Shown in pieces: positions 3,118 to 13,067 of a DNA stretch of 64,000 nt. A model generated the notes under the pieces. It searched no databases. It saw nothing but the letters and a program-made list of their open reading frames with translations, and had not been told where the DNA came from. Position numbers and translations under genes: made by a program. The stretch is from Thermodesulfovibrionales bacterium (GTDB lineage Bacteria > Nitrospirota > Thermodesulfovibrionia > Thermodesulfovibrionales > SM23-35), in NCBI GenBank assembly GCA_963727725.1, contig CAVSHJ010000034.1, positions 94,446 to 158,445 on the forward strand, given 5' to 3'. Numbering within the stretch: position 1 is the first letter of the stretch; each line of letters opens with the position of its first letter.

Positions 3118-3453
3118 TCAACCGCATTCTTTTATGACGTCATCAACCCAGCTCAATGCAGCCGACACGGTCGGGAATCCTACAGTGCTTGTGATCAATA
3201 TTATAGCGTGACGGACCTCCTCATGTTTTGCACCTGCTTTAAGTGCCCGTCGTGCGTGAGAATGCACGGCGCCCTCGGACCTTATTGCAGCGGCAGCTGC
3301 CAGCTGGATCAAATGGGAAGTCCTTGCATTAATAGGACCCGAATCCCTTGCAGCTTTCCCGAGGTTTTCAACTGCCTTGTAGAGTTTCTGAAACCTTTTT
3401 CTGATGCTTAAATACTGTCCCGGCAATTCTTTCATGGATTCCTCCTCATTCAA
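3118..3453 (-). CDS. carboxymuconolactone decarboxylase (AhpD-like) family protein
   Basis: 111 aa. The LIQLAAAAAIRSEGAVHSHARRALKAGAKHEEVRHAI pattern is typical of CMD-family proteins. Its ATG overlaps the upstream stop (ATGA). Confidence 0.7.
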   Translation of the reverse strand: MNEEESMKELPGQYLSIRKRFQKLYKAVENLGKAARDSGPINARTSHLIQLAAAAAIRSEGAVHSHARRALKAGAKHEEVRHAIILITSTVGFPTVSAALSWVDDVIKECG

Positions 3454-4666
3454 ACTTTGACTGGTATTCTTTTACTCTGATTGCGAACTCCTTCCCGAAC
3501 TCGTAACAACGCTTCCAGTCTTCGCCGGATGGTTTATAGACGACTTGAACTCCCTGTTCAACGGTCTCCAGTCCCATTTTCTTTATCTCTTCGTATATGT
3601 CCCTTACTGCGCCGCCACCCCATCCATAGCTGCCGAATGCGCCGACAATGCGGTTCTTCGGTCTCAGGCCCCTTCAGGTAGGCCAGAAATTCAGCTATGG
3701 TCGGAAACATGGAATTGTTCAGAGTCGGTGACCCGATGAGGCATCCCCTTGCCTTCCAGAACTCTTTTACTGCAAGACTCACCGGACTTGCTCTCAGTTT
3801 TACTACTTTGACGTCAACGCCTTCGTCCTTTATTCCCTGCACCAACGGTACGGTCATCTGCTCCGTGCTGTGCCACATTGTGTCATAGATGATTACAACC
3901 TTCGTGTCAGCCTTCCCGTTAGCCATATCAAGATACATACCGGTAATAAGGGACGGGTCTTTTCTCCATATAATTCCGTGGTCGGGCGCTATCATATCGA
4001 TTTCAAGTCCCAGCTTTTGTATCTCCGCAATCTTGTTCTTTATGAGCGCGCCAAAAGGCATCAGGATGTTCGCATAGTAATCCTTCACCGCAGTCCTCAA
4101 GCTCGGATAATGAGAAACCGGCGATAAATTCGTCATCAAATCTGGCTGCCGATGCATAATGCTGACCGAATGCGTCCTGACTGATGAGAAGCTTATCTTC
4201 TCTCACGTAGGTCATCATGGAATCCGGCCAGTGCAGCATGGGAGTCTCCAGGAAGAGCAGATTCCTCCTGCCGATATTCAGGGTGTCTCCTGTCTTCACG
4301 ACTCTAATATCCCATTTCGATATGTCGAAAAACCTGCCGAGGCCCTTTTTCCCCCTGTCTGTTATATAGATAGTCGCGTCAGGCTGCAAGTTGCATGATG
4401 GCGCTGATGCCTGAGACGTGATCATTCTCGATATGGTTAACTATGATATTTCTTATCTTAGATGGATCTGTCAGGCCTTTTATATTCTCGATACTGACCT
4501 CGGCAAAATCATGCTTTACGGCATCAAGAAGGGTAATCTGGTCATCGAGGATTAGATAATTATTGTAAGTTGTTCCGTTCGGGGTAACATACCCATGGAA
4601 ATCCCTTACCGCCCAGTCAATTGCACCAACCCAGTAAATATCGGGTTTTATTTCCACCGCTTTCAT
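3450..4666 (-). pseudogene. flavodiiron protein (FprA/ROO-type O2/NO reductase), interrupted by at least 3 frameshifts
   Basis: The metallo-beta-lactamase N-terminus (MKAVEIKPDIYWVGAIDW...HIENDHVSG), the middle ([14 protein letters not shown]) and the flavodoxin C-terminus (VVIIYDTMWHSTE...GSPTLNN...GSYGWGGG) lie in different frames. They span ORFs 4379-4744, 4003-4425, 3558-4157 and a fourth frame ending at 3450. Confidence 0.8.
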
Positions 4667-4789
4667 CAATCTTTCTCCTTTCCTTTTTAATATCGGCCGT
4701 CCGTGACAGAATCGATTACGGATGCAGTGCAACTGCATCTTCAAATGAACGGGTCTTATTTCACAACGTTATCAAAAAAATAATTGTTG

Positions 4790-5782
4790 TCAAGAGCCTT
4801 CCAAGGACAGGAGCCCGCATCGCGGGTCCGCAGTATGAAGGGTACGGCAGAAGAAGTAACTGTGGGCCGGACATCCGCCCGTGCATACGGAATAATTCCG
4901 GCAGGTCGGTGACCCTGCACGGGTTCCCGCCGTCATAATTTCTGAAGCCCTCCAGGAGCGGATTCCGCAGGATTTTTTCGATTCCATCAGCAAAAATACT
5001 GCCGAGACGGAATTCCTTGAAACCCGCGAAACAGATTACAGGGAAAAGCTGATCCGTCAGGCAAGTATCGCGATTTTTTCTGTACCGGCGTCGCACCTGC
5101 CTGCACGGCCGCCATATTTATAGAATCCGGATGCCGCAACAAATCTAACGTCCAACAGGCATTTTGTATTCCTCTTCAACCGGGAATAAATGTCATAAAA
5201 TTCGGGGAATGAGAAACAGGGCCGCGACAGCCTCCTGCCGATAGTGTCTTCATACAGAAGAAAGTATCTCTTTACGCCTAGTTCCGCAAGATAAGGGACG
5301 AGCTCGAAAATCTCGTTCTTGTTTTCACGCAGCAGGACGCTCTTCACGGCAGGATCTTTCCCCGCCTCGATCATTTTCATGAGCCCGAGGACGGCATTAG
5401 AAAAATTGTCCGATTTTGTCAATGCATTATGAGTCCTGGAAAAGCCATGGATCGAAAATCCAAGGCTGAAAAAGCCCCCCTCAAGGTCTGTGAGACGGTC
5501 CGGAATATCGGGGAGGCTGCCGTTAGTGCTCATATTTACTCTGATCCCCGAGTCTGTCATACGTTTCGCAAAATCCGTGATCCATGGCAGAAGCATGGGT
5601 TCACCGCCCAGAATGTCTATTTCGGGAATGCCGTTTTCTATCAGCACGCTGCCCAGGGCATCCGCGTCAGCGGCATTCATATCTCCGTAGGCAACAGAAG
5701 ATATGCTCCGGTTGAAGCAGAAACCGCAGTTCTGATTGCACCGGAGGGTCGGATAAAGTTGTATAAAAGAAGGATATTTCAC
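4790..5782 (-). pseudogene. radical SAM/SPASM-domain protein, interrupted by about 2 frameshifts
   Basis: The CNQNCGFC (CX3CX2C) motif is at the N-terminus, after a GTG start. The C-terminal Cys-rich SPASM-like stretch (CRNYSVCTGGCP...DPRC) continues in other frames (ORFs 4761-5096 and 4790-4993). Confidence 0.6.
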
Positions 5783-5806
5783 CTGTTGTCTCTAATTATA
5801 TCAATC

Positions 5807-5834
5807 TTGACATTGTTTATGAACATGCTAATAT
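5807..5834 (+). promoter_or_regulatory. sigma70-type promoter candidate
   Basis: TTGACA (5807-5812), 16-nt spacer, TGc-TAATAT (extended -10, 5826-5834). It lies about 30 nt upstream of the ATG at 5866. Confidence 0.45.
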
Positions 5835-5865
5835 CTATAGTAAACAAAGGACACCGGGAGGACGA

Positions 5866-6366
5866 ATGAACGCTATAGAGATAGCTATCAGGATGGAGAA
5901 AGACGCGATAAGTTTCTATACCGAGGCGGCGGGGAAAATAATAAATCCTGTCGGAAAGAAGATGTTTTTGTCCATAACGGAAGATGAGAAAAGGCATCTC
6001 CAGACCCTGTCCCGGATATTCAGGGAAGTTGATATCAAGATGGAAGAAGTGAGTCCGATGAAAAACATGCAGACCATCTTTCAGTCCATGAAGGATGAGA
6101 TGATGAAGAGGGTCCAGGCGACCGCAGACGAGCTCGATGCATTCAGGATCGCGATGCGGATGGAGAAAGAAGGCGTCGAATTTTATAAGAAGGCTGAAGC
6201 CGAAGCAGCGACGGAAAAAGAGAAGGCGCTCTTCGCCAGACTCATCAAAGAAGAGGAAGAACATTATGCTGTTTTTGCGAATACCCAATTTTTCCTTTCC
6301 GATACCGGCAGCTGGTTCATGTGGGAGGAGCACAGCATTGTTGACGGCGGCACGCCGTGGGCGTAA
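5866..6366 (+). CDS. rubrerythrin/ferritin-like diiron domain protein
   Basis: 166 aa. The helix pair is duplicated, with E...ExxH motifs: MEKDAISFY / EDEKRHLQ and MEKEGVEFY / EEEEHYAV. Confidence 0.65.
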   Translation: MNAIEIAIRMEKDAISFYTEAAGKIINPVGKKMFLSITEDEKRHLQTLSRIFREVDIKMEEVSPMKNMQTIFQSMKDEMMKRVQATADELDAFRIAMRMEKEGVEFYKKAEAEAATEKEKALFARLIKEEEEHYAVFANTQFFLSDTGSWFMWEEHSIVDGGTPWA

Positions 6367-6437
6367 TACATTGTGGATTTACCGCTGGATGACTCCATAA
6401 CGGGTCTTTTAACTTTACCTGAGAAAGGAGGAATGTG

Positions 6438-6692
6438 ATGGGATACTCTGATGTTGCTTTAGAGGATAAAATTCTTGAGATGTATCCTGAAATAAGAAGG
6501 CACGGCATATCGGTGAACCTTACTTTTGACAAAGGGAAAGATGCCTACATTGTCAAATTCACCAGAGATAAGAAAGAACTTACCACACACCTTGAAAAGA
6601 AGGACGCCGACGACTGTATGAACAACATTAAATGCGTTTACCTCGGTGTTCAGGTGTCGCAGTTCATCAAGAATTTTGAAGAAAGAAAATAA
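6438..6692 (+). CDS. small hypothetical protein
   Basis: 84 aa. AAAGGAGG RBS lies 6 nt upstream of the ATG at 6438 (the ORF track starts at a GTG at 6435). I recognised no motif. Confidence 0.5.
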   Translation: MGYSDVALEDKILEMYPEIRRHGISVNLTFDKGKDAYIVKFTRDKKELTTHLEKKDADDCMNNIKCVYLGVQVSQFIKNFEERK

Positions 6693-6716
6693 AAATTTCT
6701 GTAAGGAGGGTTCGCC

Positions 6717-7052
6717 ATGCCGACCATTGAGTACGAAGGATTAAAGATCGAATTGGATGATGAGGGTTTTCTGGTCAATTATAATTCGTGGAATGAAAAG
6801 GTTGCCTGTGCGCTGGCCGAGAGGGAAGGCGTCAGCAAGAAGTGTCCGCTCGCTGAGGAACAGATTGATATCCTGAAATTTATCAGGACATATTACGAAA
6901 AATATCAGGCCATGCCTATAGTTCGCGCAGTCTGCAGAAATGTCCATCAGCCGAAGAATTGTGAATACGTGCAGTTCCACGATCCCGTTGTTGCAAGCAA
7001 GCTCGCGGGGCTGCCAAGACTTGCAACTCTTACGGGATATGAGATAAAGTAG
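6717..7052 (+). CDS. TusE/DsrC-family protein lacking the C-terminal cysteines
   Basis: 111 aa. It has a DsrC-like N-terminus (EYEGLKIELDDEGFL) and core (EEQIDILKFIRTYYEKY). The C-terminus reads ASKLAGLPRLATLTGYEIK where canonical DsrC has ACKIAGLPKPTGCV. Confidence 0.75.
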   Translation: MPTIEYEGLKIELDDEGFLVNYNSWNEKVACALAEREGVSKKCPLAEEQIDILKFIRTYYEKYQAMPIVRAVCRNVHQPKNCEYVQFHDPVVASKLAGLPRLATLTGYEIK

Positions 7053-7140
7053 GACATTGCAGCAATCCAACCTCCGTCTGTCCGGATAAGGTCATGAAAG
7101 GGAGGTTCTCACCAAAAAACAATATTAAGGAGGTAAGGTC

Positions 7141-7326
7141 ATGCCAAAGCCGGTAGTAAATGAGGATTTATGTGAAGGTTGTGCCACATGTGAGGAACTC
7201 TGCCCTGAGGTCTTCAAGGTGCAGGATGATGGAAAGGCGCATGTTATCGGAGCCGACAAATGTAATACCTGCGACTGTCAGGAAGCCGCCGATACCTGCC
7301 CCGTGCAGGCAATAACCATAGAGTAA
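7141..7326 (+). CDS. small 4Fe-4S ferredoxin
   Basis: 61 aa with CEGCATCEELCP and a distal C...CP motif. Strong AAGGAGG RBS. Confidence 0.8.
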   Translation: MPKPVVNEDLCEGCATCEELCPEVFKVQDDGKAHVIGADKCNTCDCQEAADTCPVQAITIE

Positions 7327-7340
7327 AATGTGATATAAAA

Positions 7341-7377
7341 GAGAAGGCTGGTTTTCTACCAGCCTTCTCTCTTTTTG
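7341..7377. terminator. bidirectional rho-independent terminator
   Basis: GAGAAGGCTGG (7341-7351), 7-nt loop, CCAGCCTTCTC (7359-7369). An A-tract lies upstream and TCTTTTT downstream. It sits between convergent transcription units. Confidence 0.7.
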
Positions 7378-7417
7378 CAGACTTTACGGGAACTTCTCTA
7401 AGAATTGGTAAAATTTA

Positions 7418-7480
7418 TTAGCACGAACTTTTGCACTTGCAGGTCGTTGAAGTCCTCTTTGACACCTTTTTTATCTTCAC
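7418..7480 (-). CDS. candidate 20-aa Cys-rich peptide (MKIKKVSKRTSTTCKCKSSC), speculative
   Basis: GTG start at 7480, with a GGGGG Shine-Dalgarno (7489-7493) 8 nt upstream. TAA stop at 7418-7420. It begins 33 nt downstream of the radical SAM/SPASM gene stop and lies upstream of the terminator. It is too short for the ORF track. Confidence 0.3.
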   Translation of the reverse strand: MKIKKVSKRTSTTCKCKSSC

Positions 7481-7513
7481 TATTGACACCCCCTTTCACG
7501 AGGAATCCGCACT

Positions 7514-8728
7514 TCATGCCCGTTCTTCATTCGTCATTATATCATAGGAAAAGCATTTGTAAAAATCTTTTCCCAGAGGATCTCCGAGCAGTTCCGCCCT
7601 GTACCTGCATCCGCCCCTGCACAAATCGATATGGCCGCAGTCGCACGTCAATTCATCAAGTCTGACGGGTCTTATCCTCTTCCAGCAATTTCTCAGGCCC
7701 TGCTCAATCCTTCCGACATAGTCATCTGCGTAGAACGTACATTTTGCGACTGCGCCGTCAGCCATCACAGCCATCAGATGTAATCCGCAGGCGAAACCGG
7801 ATGCTCCTGAATGAAGGCCGCTGCCAAAACCGTACCTCAGATATTTTCCACCTTCCTCCGGAGATATGTGGAATTCAGGGTTTTCCCCCAGTCTACCTGT
7901 TATGCATGGAACGTCGACAGTCCAGTCTTTTATCCCCACGTTCTTGAACAAGATCTCCATTTTTTCAAAATCCCGCAGATTTTGCGGATGAATCATCGTG
8001 GATACAGAGACCTCGAATCCCGAATCTATGGTCCGCCGGATAGCCTCCGTTGCCGATCTGAAGGTCCCCCTCCCTCTCAACGAATCGTGCGCCTCCTCAA
8101 GCCCGTCTATGCTGACCTGGATTTCATTGACCTTGAGCATCTTGCATATCCTCTTGTCCAGTAAAAGACCGTTCGTGAAAAGGACCGTTCTGAAGAAAAA
8201 TTCGGGAAGCATCTCGTTTATCTCTTCGAATCTGCTGTGGATGAGAGGCTCTCCTCCGGTAATGAGGACTCTCAGCCCCTGAATATCTTCGAATTCCTTC
8301 AAGACGTTCCTTATCTGGTTAACAGAAAGCTCGTTGAAGTTTCCTTTTTTCAATGACTTATCAAATCCCCCCATCCCCCCTTTTCTAAAGGGGGGCAAGG
8401 GGGGATTTTTCTCTCCAATATAACAATGTCTGCATCTGAGGTTGCATCTGTTCGTGATCTGCAGTTCGAGATATCTCAGCGAAGGCGCAGGCGACTTTAT
8501 CAGAAAAGGGCGCCTCAGCGAAACCTTATCCCGGGTCAGGATCCCTTCCGACAGGCAATAATCGATGAATTCGCTTTGTTCCGCGTCACCTCCCATGTCC
8601 GACGCACAATCCTTCAGAAACTCAAAAGACTCATGGTCGAGTTCATATAGATCGTCTTTTCTTATGTTATAAACAGAGGGAGTTTCAAGCCATTTAAGGA
8701 CAGATTCTCCGGAGAGAAAATATTTCAT
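7514..8728 (-). CDS. radical SAM/SPASM-domain protein with about 90-aa N-terminal extension
   Basis: 404 aa. CNLRCRHC (CX3CX2C) radical SAM motif. C-terminal Cys-rich SPASM-like region (CDCGHIDLCRGGCRYR). The N-terminal 90 aa before the core could be a peptide-recognition domain, which is inference only. Confidence 0.8.
   Translation of the reverse strand: MKYFLSGESVLKWLETPSVYNIRKDDLYELDHESFEFLKDCASDMGGDAEQSEFIDYCLSEGILTRDKVSLRRPFLIKSPAPSLRYLELQITNRCNLRCRHCYIGEKNPPLPPFRKGGMGGFDKSLKKGNFNELSVNQIRNVLKEFEDIQGLRVLITGGEPLIHSRFEEINEMLPEFFFRTVLFTNGLLLDKRICKMLKVNEIQVSIDGLEEAHDSLRGRGTFRSATEAIRRTIDSGFEVSVSTMIHPQNLRDFEKMEILFKNVGIKDWTVDVPCITGRLGENPEFHISPEEGGKYLRYGFGSGLHSGASGFACGLHLMAVMADGAVAKCTFYADDYVGRIEQGLRNCWKRIRPVRLDELTCDCGHIDLCRGGCRYRAELLGDPLGKDFYKCFSYDIMTNEERA
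8363..8408. repeat. G/C-tract palindromic element inserted in frame within a CDS
   Basis: AAATCCCCCC..CCCCCC..GGGGGG..GGGGGGATTT is a nested palindrome. It translates on the minus strand as NPPLPPFRKGGMGGF, directly after the radical SAM cluster motif. Related elements lie at 16909-17000 and 59251-59306. Confidence 0.7.
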
Positions 8729-8849
8729 CTTTTTATTCTACAGGATGAGAGATTGCCGTTTCTATCAGGCCATTATATTCAGGTTCTGTGATATACTACT
8801 GAAGTAAACCTTTTCATCACAACCTTCTGTCTTTGGGGAAAGAGAATTT

Positions 8850-10379
8850 ATGGAAAATTCAAAAGCGAAGGTTCTCTGCGTTGATGACGATCCCGATCTG
8901 CTCCTTATTAATTCGAGTATCTTGAAATTAGCCGGGCATGAGGTACTTGAAGCCACCGACGGCCATGCATGCATCGACATGATCAGGAAAGAACGGCCGG
9001 ATCTTGTCTTGCTTGATGTCATACTTCCGGACATGAGCGGTCTGGAAGTCTGCAGGCAGATCAAGACGACTCCCGGGATGACAGATACTTATGTGGTTCT
9101 GATCTCCGGTATGGAGACCTCGTCAAAAAGCCAGATCAAAGGACTGGAAGCAGGGGCAGACGGATATATCGTTCGCCCTGTCTCGTCACAGGAGCTACTT
9201 GCACGCGTTCAGGCCTTGATAAGGATCAAGAAAATGGAATCGGTTCTCCGGAAAAGCATGGAGCGGTATCAAATGCTGGTTGAAACAATGAATGACGGCC
9301 TTGGAATCCTGGACGAAAACGGGATAATCACCTTTGCCAACGATAAGGTCTGCGAGATGACGGGATTTTCAAGAGACGAGATCATCGGTCATTCCGTGAC
9401 CGACTTTATCAATGAAAATGACAGGACTACTTATGGGGGACACTTTAAGGAATATAAGAATGGTATTTCTGAACCCTTTGAACTCACATGTTTGAAGAGA
9501 AATGGTGAGAAGATATCTCTTATAGTGTCACCAAGGCCGATTCTTGATGATAACGGTAATTTCAGGGGGGCTTTTGCCGTTATGACGGACATCACCGGAC
9601 GCAAGAAATATGAAGAAGCCATCAGGAAACTGAATGAAGAACTGGAACGCCGGGTTGAAGAACGCACCGGTCAGATCAAGGCCGTGGTTGAAGAACTGGA
9701 AGAGGAGATTATAGAGCGGAAGAAAGTCGAGGAATCACTGAAAGAGAACGAAGAGAAATTCCGTGCGATAACCATGACTGCCACGGACGCGATTATACTT
9801 ATGAACGATGAAGGGAAAATTTCGTACTGGAACCCTGCCGCGGAAAAAATATTCGGCTATACGAAACAGGAGGCTGTCGGTAAAGGACTCCATACCCTCC
9901 TTTCACCTGCGGAGTACTATGATGCTTACCAGGAAGGTTTGCGTATCTTCAGAGAGACGGGACGCGGACCTGTTATCGGGAAAACCCTGGAGTTTCTGGC
10001 CATCAAGAAAGATGGGACAAAATTTCCGATAGAGATGTCCACTTCTGTCATAAACGTTAAGGGAAGGCGGGAGGCTGTCGGAATAATACGCGATGTCACA
10101 GAGCGCAAGCTGGACGAAGAAACTCTCCTGCGGTATGCGGAAAGGCTCCATACCCTTTCCAATCGCCTGATAGAAGTTCAGGAGTCGGAACGCCATCATT
10201 TCTCACATGAACTGCATAACGAGATCGGCCGGTCACTGACCGGACTGAGACTCTCCATAGAGGATATTGCTTCCCTGCCTCCGCTGGATGTTAAGGCAAG
10301 ACTCGGGGAAATACTGACCCGGGTCAAAGAGATCCTGGACAAGATGCAAAATGCACCGCTCAATATCAACTCTCAGTGA
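8850..10379 (+). CDS. response-regulator receiver + 2 PAS + HisKA_3 dimerisation domain protein; kinase ATPase domain absent
   Basis: 509 aa. REC domain (KVLCVDDDPD...DLVLLDVILPDMSG), coiled coil, two PAS regions, then a His-box (ESERHHFSHELHNEIG). The ORF stops about 55 aa after the His-box with no HATPase_c motifs. Confidence 0.75.
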   Translation: MENSKAKVLCVDDDPDLLLINSSILKLAGHEVLEATDGHACIDMIRKERPDLVLLDVILPDMSGLEVCRQIKTTPGMTDTYVVLISGMETSSKSQIKGLEAGADGYIVRPVSSQELLARVQALIRIKKMESVLRKSMERYQMLVETMNDGLGILDENGIITFANDKVCEMTGFSRDEIIGHSVTDFINENDRTTYGGHFKEYKNGISEPFELTCLKRNGEKISLIVSPRPILDDNGNFRGAFAVMTDITGRKKYEEAIRKLNEELERRVEERTGQIKAVVEELEEEIIERKKVEESLKENEEKFRAITMTATDAIILMNDEGKISYWNPAAEKIFGYTKQEAVGKGLHTLLSPAEYYDAYQEGLRIFRETGRGPVIGKTLEFLAIKKDGTKFPIEMSTSVINVKGRREAVGIIRDVTERKLDEETLLRYAERLHTLSNRLIEVQESERHHFSHELHNEIGRSLTGLRLSIEDIASLPPLDVKARLGEILTRVKEILDKMQNAPLNINSQ

Positions 10380-10388
10380 GAGAAAAAA

Positions 10389-10437
10389 GGGATTCCGGAC
10401 ATCTCCGCCTGAGGCGGACTGAGGCGGACGGAATGAC
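10389..10437. repeat. GGAATGAC-type nested hairpin repeat
   Basis: GGGATTCCG ... CCGCCTGAGGCGG ... CGGAATGAC. The inner CCGCCTCAGGCGG palindrome also occurs in the 46892 copy. Confidence 0.6.
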
Positions 10438-10485
10438 AACCTATTCAAGCATTTTATGAGCAGAGATTTATGGTGCTCTATATAG

Positions 10486-10827
10486 TTGCAAATGAGAGTT
10501 GACCTGCGAGGTGAGTTGTGCTCGAGGTTCTGTCCCTACTACAAGCCCGGTAAGAAAGAGGACCTCGCCTGCAAGGGTTTTCTTGTGATTGAAGGGCTGA
10601 TAAACAGAGGCCGGCAAATTCCGTTCTCTGTCACGGAAAAGAGGCCCGATCCCGCAATCCAGGAATCACTTTTACATAACCTCTGTGCCGTATGTCCTTT
10701 CTCGGAGGACGGTTGTGATTTTGTGCAACAGAAGGAAAGCTTCTCGCCATGCGGCGGGTTCATCTTGCTGGCTTATCTGCTGGGAGCGAACATCGTCACC
10801 ATTGACAACATAAGAGATGTAAGATAA
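10486..10827 (+). CDS. hypothetical Cys-rich protein
   Basis: 113 aa from a TTG start (an ATG lies at 10492). It has several Cys pairs (CSRFC, CAVCP, C..C). No clear RBS and no recognised family. Confidence 0.35.
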   Translation: MQMRVDLRGELCSRFCPYYKPGKKEDLACKGFLVIEGLINRGRQIPFSVTEKRPDPAIQESLLHNLCAVCPFSEDGCDFVQQKESFSPCGGFILLAYLLGANIVTIDNIRDVR

Positions 10828-10860
10828 ACTTTTTTCAAAAAAAGAGGGCAGGAGAAGAAC

Positions 10861-11328
10861 ATGGCAAAGTTTTCGGTGAGAGAAGTTGTGGAACAGGCTG
10901 TTCAGACGGAAAAGATCGGCAATGAGTTCTATTCTTCTATGGCAGGCAAATTCCGTGAGAACCATGAACTGAAGGAGCTCTTCGAAGTACTCGCTTCCCA
11001 GGAATTAAAACACGAAAAAATCTTCACTGAGTTAGAAAAGCAGATCAGGGACGGAGAGCCCGAGGGATGGGATGAGGTCTCACTCTATTTGAGGGCCCTT
11101 GTCGATTCGGAGTTTTTTCTCGGCAGGGACAAATCCCTTTCGGCAATTGGGAGCGTAAAAACAGCGGCAGAGGCGATCAAATTTGCACTCGGCTTTGAAA
11201 GAGAAACATTGCTCTACTATCATGGTCTCAGGGAAACGATAAAAGAAGAAGACGTTATTGATGAAATAATAAAAGAAGAGAAAAGGCATATCGTATGGCT
11301 GAACAATCTGAGAAAAAGTTTTGTGTAG
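10861..11328 (+). CDS. rubrerythrin/ferritin-like diiron domain protein
   Basis: 155 aa. E...ExxH motifs: TEKIGNEFY / SQELKHEK and FERETLLYY / KEEKRHIV. Confidence 0.65.
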   Translation: MAKFSVREVVEQAVQTEKIGNEFYSSMAGKFRENHELKELFEVLASQELKHEKIFTELEKQIRDGEPEGWDEVSLYLRALVDSEFFLGRDKSLSAIGSVKTAAEAIKFALGFERETLLYYHGLRETIKEEDVIDEIIKEEKRHIVWLNNLRKSFV

Positions 11329-11331
11329 GTC

Positions 11332-13067
11332 TTGGACTATTCCCTGAAAATAGGCGGTGAGGCGGGACAGGGCATTCAGACCATCGGAGATACTCTTGCG
11401 AGGGTATTTTCGCGGTCAGGGTACCATGTCTTCACCCATCAGGACTACGAGTCCCGCATAAGGGGCGGCCACAATTTCTTCCAGATACGGTTTTCGGATA
11501 AACCTGTCACGGCGTCCAGAGACAGAATCGATATCATTGTCGCGCTGGATAAGGAGAGCATATCACTTCATGAAAAAGAACTCGCACAGAACGGTGTCAT
11601 TATCTATGATTCAGGTATGATCGGTCATCCCCTTACACCTTCTTCAGAAAAGGAAGGCGGGAGTAGATTCCTGGATATCCCTTTTGTCAGTCTAGCGACG
11701 GAACACGGCGGCAGCAAGATAATGGCCAACACGGTTGCAACCGGAGCTGTTTTGGGGGTGCTGAAACTCGGTCCGGATATCCTCATCAGCATTATAGAAA
11801 GCGCCTTCAAGAAGAAGGGCGAAGATATTATCAATGCAAATATAAAGGCGGCGCAGTCCGGATATGATTTTGCGGTGAAAAGCTGTCTGCAATGTTCCTT
11901 CTCGGCTGCTTCCCCGTCCGAACCAAAGATGTTGATAGCGGGAATCGATGCTATCGCTCTTGGAGCTATTGCATCCGGGTGTAAATTTTATTCAGCATAC
12001 CCCATGACGCCTTCCACAGGGATTATGAATTATCTGGCGGGGAAAGAGCAGGAATACGGAATTATCGTGGAACAGGCGGAAGACGAGATTGCTGCGATAA
12101 ATATGGCGTTGGGCGCGTCCTTTGCGGGTGTCCGGGCAATGACGGGCACGGCAGGAGGGGGCTTTGCATTAATGGTCGAAGGACTGTCCCTGGCGGGGAT
12201 GACGGAGACACCTGTAGTTATTGCAGTCGGACAGAGACCGGGACCCGCAACCGGTCTGCCTACGAGGACGGAACAGGCTGATCTGCTGTTCGTCCTGCAT
12301 GCCGCGCACGGGGAATTTCCGAGGGTCATATTTGCGCCGGGCACTCCGGAACAGGCGTTCTATCTGACGAATAAGGCATTCGATATCGCGGAGAAATACC
12401 AGGTCCCTGCCTTTATAATCTTCGACCAGTACCTGGCTGATTCGGAGTGGACGTTTAAGGGATTTGATCTGGAAAAGACCACCTATAGAGATTACAGAAT
12501 GAGAGGGGACAAACTGAAAGAACTGAGCGGTTACAAGAGGCATGCCCTTACAGAGACAGGCGTGTCTCCTTTAGGGGTTCCGGGAGATTCAAAACACCTG
12601 ATCGTAACCGACAGCGATGAACATGATGAGGAGGGGCATATCATAGAAGATGCTGAAACGAGGGTCAGGATGGTCGAAAAGAGACTGCTGAGGAAACTGC
12701 CGCTGATAAGAGCAGGAAATAGACGCTCCGTCTTTATATGGAAGCGGTCAGCCTGAAATAGTGATCGCAGGGTGGGGTTCCACATTCGGTGTGATGAAAG
12801 AGGTGACGGATATACTTTCAAAAGATAAGAATATCGCCATGCTTCATTTCAGCGAGATTTACCCGTTTCCCTGCCGGGAAGTCAGATTATCTGAAGATCC
12901 TTGAGAATGCAAAGCTCTCTGTCTGCATTGAGAATAACGCGACAGGGCAGTTCGCGCGCCTCATGAGGACTGAGACGGGATATGAATTCAAGGCCAGGAT
13001 CAATAAGTATGACGGCAGACCTTTTACGGTGGAAGGTCTTTTGGACCGTTTAAGTCATATTCTATGA
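11332..13067 (+). pseudogene. korA: 2-oxoacid:ferredoxin oxidoreductase alpha subunit (fused gamma-alpha), about 2 frameshifts near the 3' end
   Basis: Gamma-like N-terminus (IGGEAGQGIQTIG) and alpha core (YPMTPSTGIMNYL). The C-terminus continues in other frames (EIVIAGWGSTFG... then LENAKLSVCIENNATGQFARL...), with shifts near 12715 and 12870. Stop at 13065-13067. Confidence 0.8.

Follow-up and report, generated by a model that had tools for sequence, protein, structure and literature searches.

Downstream of a radical S-adenosylmethionine (SAM) enzyme gene in contig CAVSHJ010000034.1 of a Thermodesulfovibrionales bacterium (assembly GCA_963727725.1), of which we analysed a stretch of 64,000 nt (hereafter the window), lies a 20-codon gene for a basic, cysteine-rich peptide. 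The two genes probably form a cassette for a ribosomally synthesised peptide that is modified after translation (RiPP), in which the enzyme would bind the basic leader of the peptide and modify its C-K-C-x-x-S-C core. Comparison of orthologous loci shows that the micro open-reading frame (micro-ORF) is, as judged by its codon variation, a real gene under coding selection, and homologous pairs of peptide and enzyme recur in archaea. From the gene itself, its linkage and the enzyme motifs, which are observed directly, we infer the binding, the modification, its chemistry and the role of the product.

A conserved 20-codon gene behind the enzyme

In the window, the predicted 404-aa radical SAM/SPASM-type maturase is encoded at 7514–8728 on the minus strand, an assignment based on a Pfam Radical_SAM match, homologs and fold. 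Its stop codon occupies 7514–7516 and is followed, after a spacer of 33 nt, by the putative precursor-peptide gene (7418–7480, minus strand), which opens with GTG at 7478–7480, runs for twenty codons and closes with TAA at 7418–7420, encoding MKIKKVSKRTSTTCKCKSSC. A GGGGG Shine-Dalgarno sequence, read from the sequence at 7489–7493 (minus strand), stands 8 nt ahead of the GTG. An initial annotation of this DNA had described the 404-aa ORF, the 33-nt gap, the GGGGG with its distance and the twenty codons, and all lie where it had put them. The shared terminator that it placed downstream was also recovered, as a bidirectional intrinsic-terminator hairpin with a 13-bp stem and T-runs at 7340–7370, closing both the enzyme–peptide unit and a convergent ferredoxin gene; across loci, the 60 nt 3′ of the peptide gene fold at −16.8 kcal/mol, vs. 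−10.0 kcal/mol for shuffled sequence. The overlapping alternative frame that it mentioned exists as well, at a length of 39 aa (7398–7517) and not 32.

A scan for enzyme relatives, with one genome per species, returned 138 stretches, the best 80 of which were analysed (enzymes 54–72% identical to that of the window, labels nearly all Nitrospirota, Nitrospirae or Thermodesulfovibrionales/-ia metagenome-assembled genomes). Together with the window these make 81 enzyme loci, and 64 of them carried an ORF of exactly 20 codons, usually 22–144 nt past the enzyme stop codon, with the pattern M-x-I-[K/R]-K-V-[S/T]-K-K-x-x-x-T-C-K-C-K-[S/N/G]-S-C-stop; one more copy was truncated by a contig end. A conserved Cys-rich micro-ORF behind orthologous radical SAM genes was what the initial annotation had proposed to look for. 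As the same 20-codon ORF accompanies enzymes of such divergence, its recurrence is, by this comparison, far beyond chance. The start codon is ATG in 61 of the 64 loci, and GGAGG or GGGGG lies 6–10 nt 5′ of it in the orthologous loci; among the closest relatives, L203 and L204 use GTG as in the window and L205 uses ATG.

Mean column entropy over the 64 loci was 0.38 bits for the first codon position, 0.34 for the second and 1.19 for the third, and in the eight core codons variation was almost confined to position 3, which implies purifying selection on a protein; the five other frames were open in 3 to 42 of the 64 loci. The encoded peptide divides into a basic leader (approximately residues 1–12) and an invariant core (residues 13–20). 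The basic N-terminus and C-terminal Cys core first noticed in the window correspond to a charge of +6, a leader of the form M-x-I-K-K-V-S-K-K and the core C-K-C-x-x-S-C.

Two promoter-like sites were noted on the minus strand. One, 5′ of the radical SAM gene (8735–8764, TAGAAA-18-TAGAAT, 9/12 consensus matches), is not above regional chance expectation. The other is a sigma-70-like near-consensus site within the 3′ end of that gene (7536–7563, TTTACA-16-TATAAT with extended TG, 11/12 matches), approximately 55 nt 5′ of the peptide start; it could supply a separate peptide transcript, and any conservation at the site would be confounded by coding constraint.

Linkage of peptide and enzyme in bacteria and archaea

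We also scanned metagenome contigs from the peptide side, using a back-translated peptide pattern with no reference to the enzyme, and recovered at least 120 loci with at least 89 distinct peptide sequences. Approximately 100 listed loci had enough flanking DNA to be informative: the enzyme was directly upstream of the peptide in 77, next to it in convergent orientation in L105 and L155, and at a distance of 2.1 kb in L111, whilst 19 had no family enzyme nearby. From the enzyme side, ~20% of genes had no nearby peptide, mainly those of one basal clade of the enzyme tree, and the 16 enzyme loci that lack the peptide gene gave nothing convincing when searched for another Cys-rich peptide. Given these enzyme-free peptide loci and the peptide-less basal clade, the two genes are strongly, not obligatorily, linked, and the linkage survives several independent rearrangements. 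Beside three of the enzyme-unlinked peptide genes (L134, L194 and L195), an 83-aa glutaredoxin-like gene (CVHC) was found ~190 nt 3′ of the peptide.

Among 1.84 billion cluster representatives, searched exhaustively, 82 clusters matched the enzyme at E ≤ 1e-30. Full-length relatives at 36–49% identity retain the motif DELYELD, and one such subfamily is archaeal, with members in Archaeoglobus sulfaticallidus, Candidatus Methanoperedens and the anaerobic methanotrophic (ANME) archaea of group ANME-2; the enzyme family spans Nitrospirota and Archaea. A homologous peptide was encoded beside the enzyme in six of the seven archaeal loci examined, namely MKIEKVSKESGVCKCNASC in A. sulfaticallidus, MKI[K/R/E]KV.K...G[V/I]CKCNASCA in four metagenomic archaeal loci and MTIKKVKKASKGTCKCHVSCA in ANME-2, each closed by a stop codon. 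The peptide gene lies downstream of the enzyme in ANME-2 and upstream in the other five. Only M1, I3, K5 and the stretch C-K-C-x-x-S-C are universal over both domains of life. Thr13 and Lys17 characterise the bacterial peptides, Thr13 being replaced by Val or Ile in five of the six archaeal peptides, and an extra C-terminal Ala follows the last Cys in 5/6. A linked short precursor with leader and core, which is the expected companion of a RiPP maturase, was found in bacterial, metagenomic and archaeal loci alike.

Features of the radical SAM enzyme

The enzyme matched Pfam Radical_SAM (PF04055) at 87.9 bits (cutoff 29.5). Inside this domain lies the cluster motif C95-x3-C99-x2-C102 (8423–8446, minus strand), invariant in the alignment of 80 homologs and kept also in distant and archaeal ones, which makes the protein a member of the radical SAM superfamily and bears out the CX3CX2C core that had been noted in the window. 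The SPASM-like C-terminus proposed at the same time has a counterpart in the C-terminal Cys pattern. In the SPASM-type auxiliary-cluster region (C275–C392; 7553–7906, minus strand), delimited by conserved alignment columns, C275, C314, G325, C330, C348, C362, C364, C370, C374 and C392 were invariant or nearly so among the 80 homologs, and the arrangement C314-x10-G325-x4-C330 ... C362-x-C364-x5-C370-x3-C374 ... C392 gives a seven-Cys SPASM-type pattern, but with CxC where the SPASM motif CX9–15GX4C...CX2CX5CX3C...C has CxxC. Homologs carry the JGI label ‘radical SAM protein with 4Fe4S-binding SPASM domain’.

Homologs of the enzyme numbered 2188 at E ≤ 1e-10. None of the 25 NCBIfam matches listed reached its curated cutoff, the best being WgkB (86 bits vs. 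650), and the ScmE, NirJ1, AhbD, MftC, SkfB, anSME and GeoRSP models scored 50–80 bits each. Anaerobic sulfatase-maturing enzymes (TIGR03942, 50.6 bits vs. 349; the peptide is also without a C/S-x-P/A-x-R motif) and sactipeptide maturases (TIGR04403, 52.9 bits vs. 300; NF045574, 52.1 vs. 625) were equally remote, and by these scores the enzyme fits none of the specific families against which it could be tested. The nearest solved structures by sequence were SkfB (best, E 2.4e-16), ChlB, MoaA, BlsE and CteB, and the best PDB fold matches were SuiB and SkfB. We count it towards the RiPP reading that the nearest solved relatives are peptide maturases (SkfB, SuiB and CteB).

Ahead of the first cluster Cys are 94 residues, in line with the ~90 first estimated. 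The AlphaFold2 (AF2) model of the enzyme is confident at residues 1–80 and in the radical SAM core, and poor in the cluster-dependent C-terminus. Residues 1–80 (8489–8728, minus strand) fold in the model into four beta-strands followed by two helices, with a predicted local confidence (pLDDT) of ~90 in the full model and of 87 when residues 1–85 are modelled alone. Top Foldseek matches of this domain in the PDB were almost all RiPP recognition elements (RREs), comprising TbiB1, the SuiB N-domain, lasso B1, CteB and LynD/TruD, and were led by TbiB1 with its leader (probability 0.90, TM 0.54–0.58); the model makes an RRE assignment suggestive, not proven. The domain carries a net charge of −9 over residues 1–66 (family median −7), its DELYELD motif being the one kept into archaeal homologs, and the charges of an acidic domain and a basic peptide are consistent with leader binding, as is the conservation of both this motif and the leader motif over bacteria and archaea.

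Directly after the CX3CX2C motif, the enzyme gene of the window contains an in-frame insertion, a GC-rich palindrome at 8361–8410 (minus strand; AATCCCCCCTTGCCCCCCTTTAGAAAAGGGGGGATGGGGGGATT, encoding NPPLPPFRKGGMGGF) that folds at −35.7 kcal/mol (z −3.7). It was also noted at L001, L002, L003 and L008. Since it is absent from 88%-identical relatives, the site is occupied by this or another palindrome in other lineages, and two loci have its core elsewhere than in the gene (L008:216–236 and L042:10130–10150), it looks like a dispersed element of the miniature inverted-repeat transposable (MITE) or repetitive extragenic palindromic (REP) kind, tolerated in a surface loop and comparable to the Rickettsia palindromic elements.

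A candidate third component

The initial annotation had proposed a minimal two-gene unit, a proposal that does not stand: of 77 bacterial loci, 61 have a small Cys protein linked to the enzyme, and so do all 7 archaeal loci. In 56 of the 61 its gene is directly upstream of the enzyme and divergent from it. In the window this candidate third component (10492–10827, plus strand; 111 aa from ATG), identified by its linkage to the enzyme in bacteria and archaea, has a response-regulator/PAS gene (8850–10379) between it and the enzyme. The Nitrospirota form of 110–116 aa is a tandem duplication of a ~50-aa domain, both halves of which match the archaeal protein, and the domain in the window copy has the motif C-x2/3-C-x-[FY]-Y-K ... 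C-G-x-F ... LL..G. The archaeal form is a single domain of 54–76 aa (C-x2-C-x-F-Y-K-x7-C-G-A-F...LL..G), stands immediately before the enzyme gene in all seven loci and overlaps the enzyme start codon wherever both genes are called, giving the order peptide, small protein, radical SAM gene where the peptide is upstream.

The small Cys protein had no Pfam, NCBIfam or PDB relative. One weak match, at E 0.024 and to the C-terminal end of the rSAM_AF0577 model, is no more than a lead, and a word-index homology search gave 23 close matches, all ‘hypothetical proteins’. The protein probably acts as a chaperone, as a metal or electron partner, or as a regulator.

Comparison with known systems

In its logic the cassette appears closest to SCIFF/ranthipeptides, and in its archaeal gene order to mftABC. 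The SCIFF systems of Clostridia (CteA–CteB, Tte1186a) likewise set a short Cys-rich precursor beside one maturase, there of the RRE-radical SAM-SPASM type, and have a wide, conserved spread throughout an anaerobic lineage, a distribution that speaks against a function as antibiotics (PMC8326336). CteB is also among the sequence and fold matches of the enzyme. However, the precursor described here has 20 aa and three Cys, against ~45 aa and six Cys in SCIFF, and matches no NCBIfam peptide model; the SCIFF maturase model (TIGR03974) is not among the 25 enzyme matches listed, which places the enzyme outside that family; the hosts are Nitrospirota and Archaea, with an additional conserved small Cys protein; and the Thr needed as a Cys–Thr acceptor is not conserved in the archaeal peptides.

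Mycofactocin genes are ordered mftA–mftB–mftC, which the archaeal order of peptide, small partner and radical SAM/SPASM enzyme parallels, and both systems keep a conserved core at the extreme C-terminus and would share a housekeeping, cofactor-type role without export. Yet the MftC model (TIGR03962) scored 63.4 bits vs. 265, well outside the family, the peptide ends in ...CKSSC where MftA has Gly-Val-Tyr, the partner is a Cys3 mini-protein in which no RRE/PqqD similarity was detected, and mftD, mftE and mftF have no equivalents. The initial annotation had compared the peptide with PqqA; the two are of similar size, and the likeness is confined to size.

SkfB and SuiB place an N-terminal peptide-binding domain before the radical SAM core and an auxiliary-cluster domain, a layout that the enzyme would share, but identity to them is just 14–21%, the SkfB model scored 53 bits vs. 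300, SkfB has a Twitch domain and not SPASM, and SuiB forms a Lys–Trp bond whereas the peptide here is without Trp. As templates for chemistry, NxxcB and SbtM are radical SAM-SPASM enzymes that act on Cys in very short cores (PMC8326336, PMC11002830). NxxcB forms a beta-thioether from Cys to Asn at i-3 (PMC8326336), but the peptide here has no conserved Asn-x-x-Cys motif, and the GeoRSP/SbtM model (TIGR04303) scored 50 bits vs. 400, with no in-frame TGA in the peptide ORF and no selenocysteine element.

Proposed modification and alternative explanations

In the RiPP-type cassette, the 20-residue peptide would be translated from its own strong ribosome-binding site, and its leader would be bound by the acidic RRE-like domain of the adjacent enzyme. 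At the radical SAM active site, one residue of the core would then lose a hydrogen atom, the substrate would be held or oxidised by the two SPASM auxiliary Fe-S clusters, and the outcome would be one or more covalent changes at the peptide cysteines. Enzymes of the radical SAM-SPASM type are known to form alpha, beta and gamma thioethers on Cys peptides, including sactipeptides, ranthipeptides, NxxcA and QhpC (PMC8326336), and one of them, SbtM, makes a thiooxazole from Cys (PMC11002830). By analogy we rank thioether cross-linking first, as a tentative proposal in which sactionine- or ranthionine-type links may join the cysteines to Lys15, Ser19 or residue 13; a Cys-derived thiooxazole or other oxidation, giving a metal- or redox-active peptide, comes second and would be an unlikely outcome. 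Modifications that depend on a Cys at the C-terminus, decarboxylation among them, were rejected as unlikely, five of the six archaeal peptides ending in Ala, as was Thr13 as a universal thioether acceptor, this residue being Val or Ile in the same proportion of archaeal peptides. The peptide core hardly varies, the loci examined carry one copy each, and the clustered neighbourhoods of the cassette hold no conserved protease or exporter gene, features more like those of SCIFF and mycofactocin than of bacteriocins. They suggest that the product serves the physiology of the cell from within (in a cofactor-like, metal-binding or signalling capacity) and is not an antibiotic.

Several observations weigh against this proposal. 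The 19 peptide loci with no family enzyme and the enzyme genes with no nearby peptide belong here, as does the Methanoperedens locus L207, where no peptide was found near the enzyme. The RRE fold matches are weak (E-values 0.2–4), and neither a PDB profile search nor a Pfam scan of the N-terminal domain (E ≤ 10) returned a PqqD or RRE match, so that the PqqD-like recognition domain of the initial annotation finds a counterpart in fold, at weak scores, and none in sequence. The Pfam SPASM model PF13186 did not match the enzyme, and AF2 confidence is low in that region. The enzyme appears approximately equally distant from many SPASM families, and its homology would thus give no chemistry. The small Cys protein may be a substrate of the enzyme, as QhpC is of QhpD, and the oxidative-stress synteny of the bacterial loci may be lineage inertia; we give the redox-gene context little weight because archaeal neighbourhoods differ.

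Other explanations would dispense with the modified peptide altogether or give it a different fate. The micro-ORF might yield no functional product, its conserved sequence being an RNA or a regulatory short ORF near the terminator, which would suit a very short ORF with GTG in the window, just 5′ of a terminator, that gene callers skip or replace with the overlapping 39-aa frame. This is nonetheless highly improbable: it is the amino-acid sequence that is conserved, codons changing mainly at their third positions, the ORF keeps its exact 20-codon length, strong Shine-Dalgarno sequence and predominant ATG, archaea have the same peptide placed differently with respect to the enzyme, it is also found at unlinked sites, and the alternative frames are without conservation. 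The 39-aa ORF was rejected as the true gene, its frame being open in few of the 64 loci and kept only in close relatives, and a structured RNA at the peptide site was rejected too, Rfam giving merely terminator-hairpin noise below gathering scores and no family that fits beyond it. We also consider it very unlikely that the true substrate is the small Cys protein or some other target, with the peptide an independent metal-binding or regulatory protein travelling along. The small Cys protein is linked as tightly as the peptide and overlaps the enzyme start in archaea, 19% of peptide genes at the listed informative loci are unlinked, and the Cys cross-links made by QhpD-type radical SAM enzymes lie inside a small protein subunit (PMC8326336); against this, the enzyme has an RRE-like domain of its own, typical of leader recognition, the peptide has a leader-plus-core layout with complementary charge, and the adjacency of the two genes is kept through several independent rearrangements.

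Alternatively, the peptide would be the substrate, but the product would be a peptide-derived cofactor or metallophore and not a thioether-bridged peptide, either through conversion of Cys to a thiooxazole, which would parallel, without a need for oxygen, the copper-binding peptides made by MNIO enzymes, or as a redox centre with the small Cys protein as its carrier. The CxC...C of the core resembles metal-binding motifs, and the invariant core, its single copy per locus, the lack of conserved export or protease genes, the co-conserved Cys3 mini-protein, the redox and oxidative-stress neighbours in Nitrospirota and the glutaredoxin-like gene beside three unlinked peptide copies would all fit such a product, for which the thiooxazole made by SbtM from Cys is a precedent (PMC11002830). 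We judge it unlikely, however, as the enzyme falls far short of the GeoRSP/SbtM model and the archaeal neighbourhoods are unrelated to oxidative stress, so that the context signal is not general.

Annotation status and significance

The initial annotation had expected standard gene callers to miss the peptide, and they do. In NCBI assembly GCA_012975005.1 the ORF is present at the site and no gene is called, whilst JGI and ENA records of the closest relatives annotate the wrong-frame 39-aa ORF that overlaps the 20-codon gene (L203:4212–4331, L204:2294–2413 and L205:4146–4265, equivalent to 7398–7517 in the window). An exact look-up of ten peptide variants, including N-terminally extended forms, in a collection of 15 billion proteins found none of them, no Pfam or NCBIfam model matched the peptide, and a literature search on the core string, and on SPASM with Thermodesulfovibrio, Archaeoglobus, Methanoperedens or ANME, found no description. 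The archaeal enzyme homologs P0291, P0339, P0352 and P0368 are named ‘Coenzyme PQQ synthesis protein E’ or ‘Putative mycofactocin radical SAM maturase MftC’ in public records, names that we regard as mislabels, the window homolog being far under the MftC model cutoff. Neither the peptide family nor the enzyme subfamily nor the accessory protein had been described.

This adds a new gene to the genomes of Thermodesulfovibrionia, where at least 138 species-level genomes carry the enzyme, of Archaeoglobus and of ANME archaea, one that automated pipelines miss by calling nothing, calling the wrong frame or labelling the enzyme PqqE/MftC. A near-invariant core in both domains of life, the absence of conserved export genes and a dedicated partner without known fold set the system apart from a routine antibiotic cluster, and because of them a physiological peptide-derived product in these environmentally important anaerobes is plausible. 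A bolder reading, and a rather unlikely one, is that the three genes make a new peptide-derived cofactor or metal- or redox-active small molecule, shared between Bacteria and Archaea by strictly anaerobic sulfate reducers and anaerobic methanotrophs as an anaerobe counterpart of pyrroloquinoline quinone (PQQ) or mycofactocin; such a cofactor would have escaped notice because its precursor gene is too short for gene callers. The system consists of three small genes, and one host, A. sulfaticallidus, is cultured.

Genomic neighbourhood

In the window the cassette lies within an oxidative-stress/redox cluster at ~3400–12800, which is syntenic across many Nitrospirota loci. It includes rubrerythrin-like genes at 5866–6366 and 10861–11328, a DsrC/TusE-like protein gene at 6717–7052, the 61-aa ferredoxin gene (7141–7326) that converges with the enzyme–peptide unit, a flavodiiron protein and a 2-oxoacid:ferredoxin oxidoreductase; superoxide dismutase and nitroreductase genes join it in relatives. 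The interval from the DsrC-like to the rubrerythrin gene holds, in related loci too, an 85-aa ORF (6435–6692 in the window, plus strand) that has no Pfam match.

A second radical SAM/SPASM gene at 4761–5782 (minus strand) was considered as an obligatory partner of the cassette and rejected, being intact downstream of it in only ~18 of 81 loci and frameshifted in the window, where three frameshifts are needed to match its 325–345-aa orthologs. Beside it, the flavodiiron-protein gene (~3449–4666, minus strand) is split over three frames, and the two are either neighbouring pseudogenes or a patch of assembly error.

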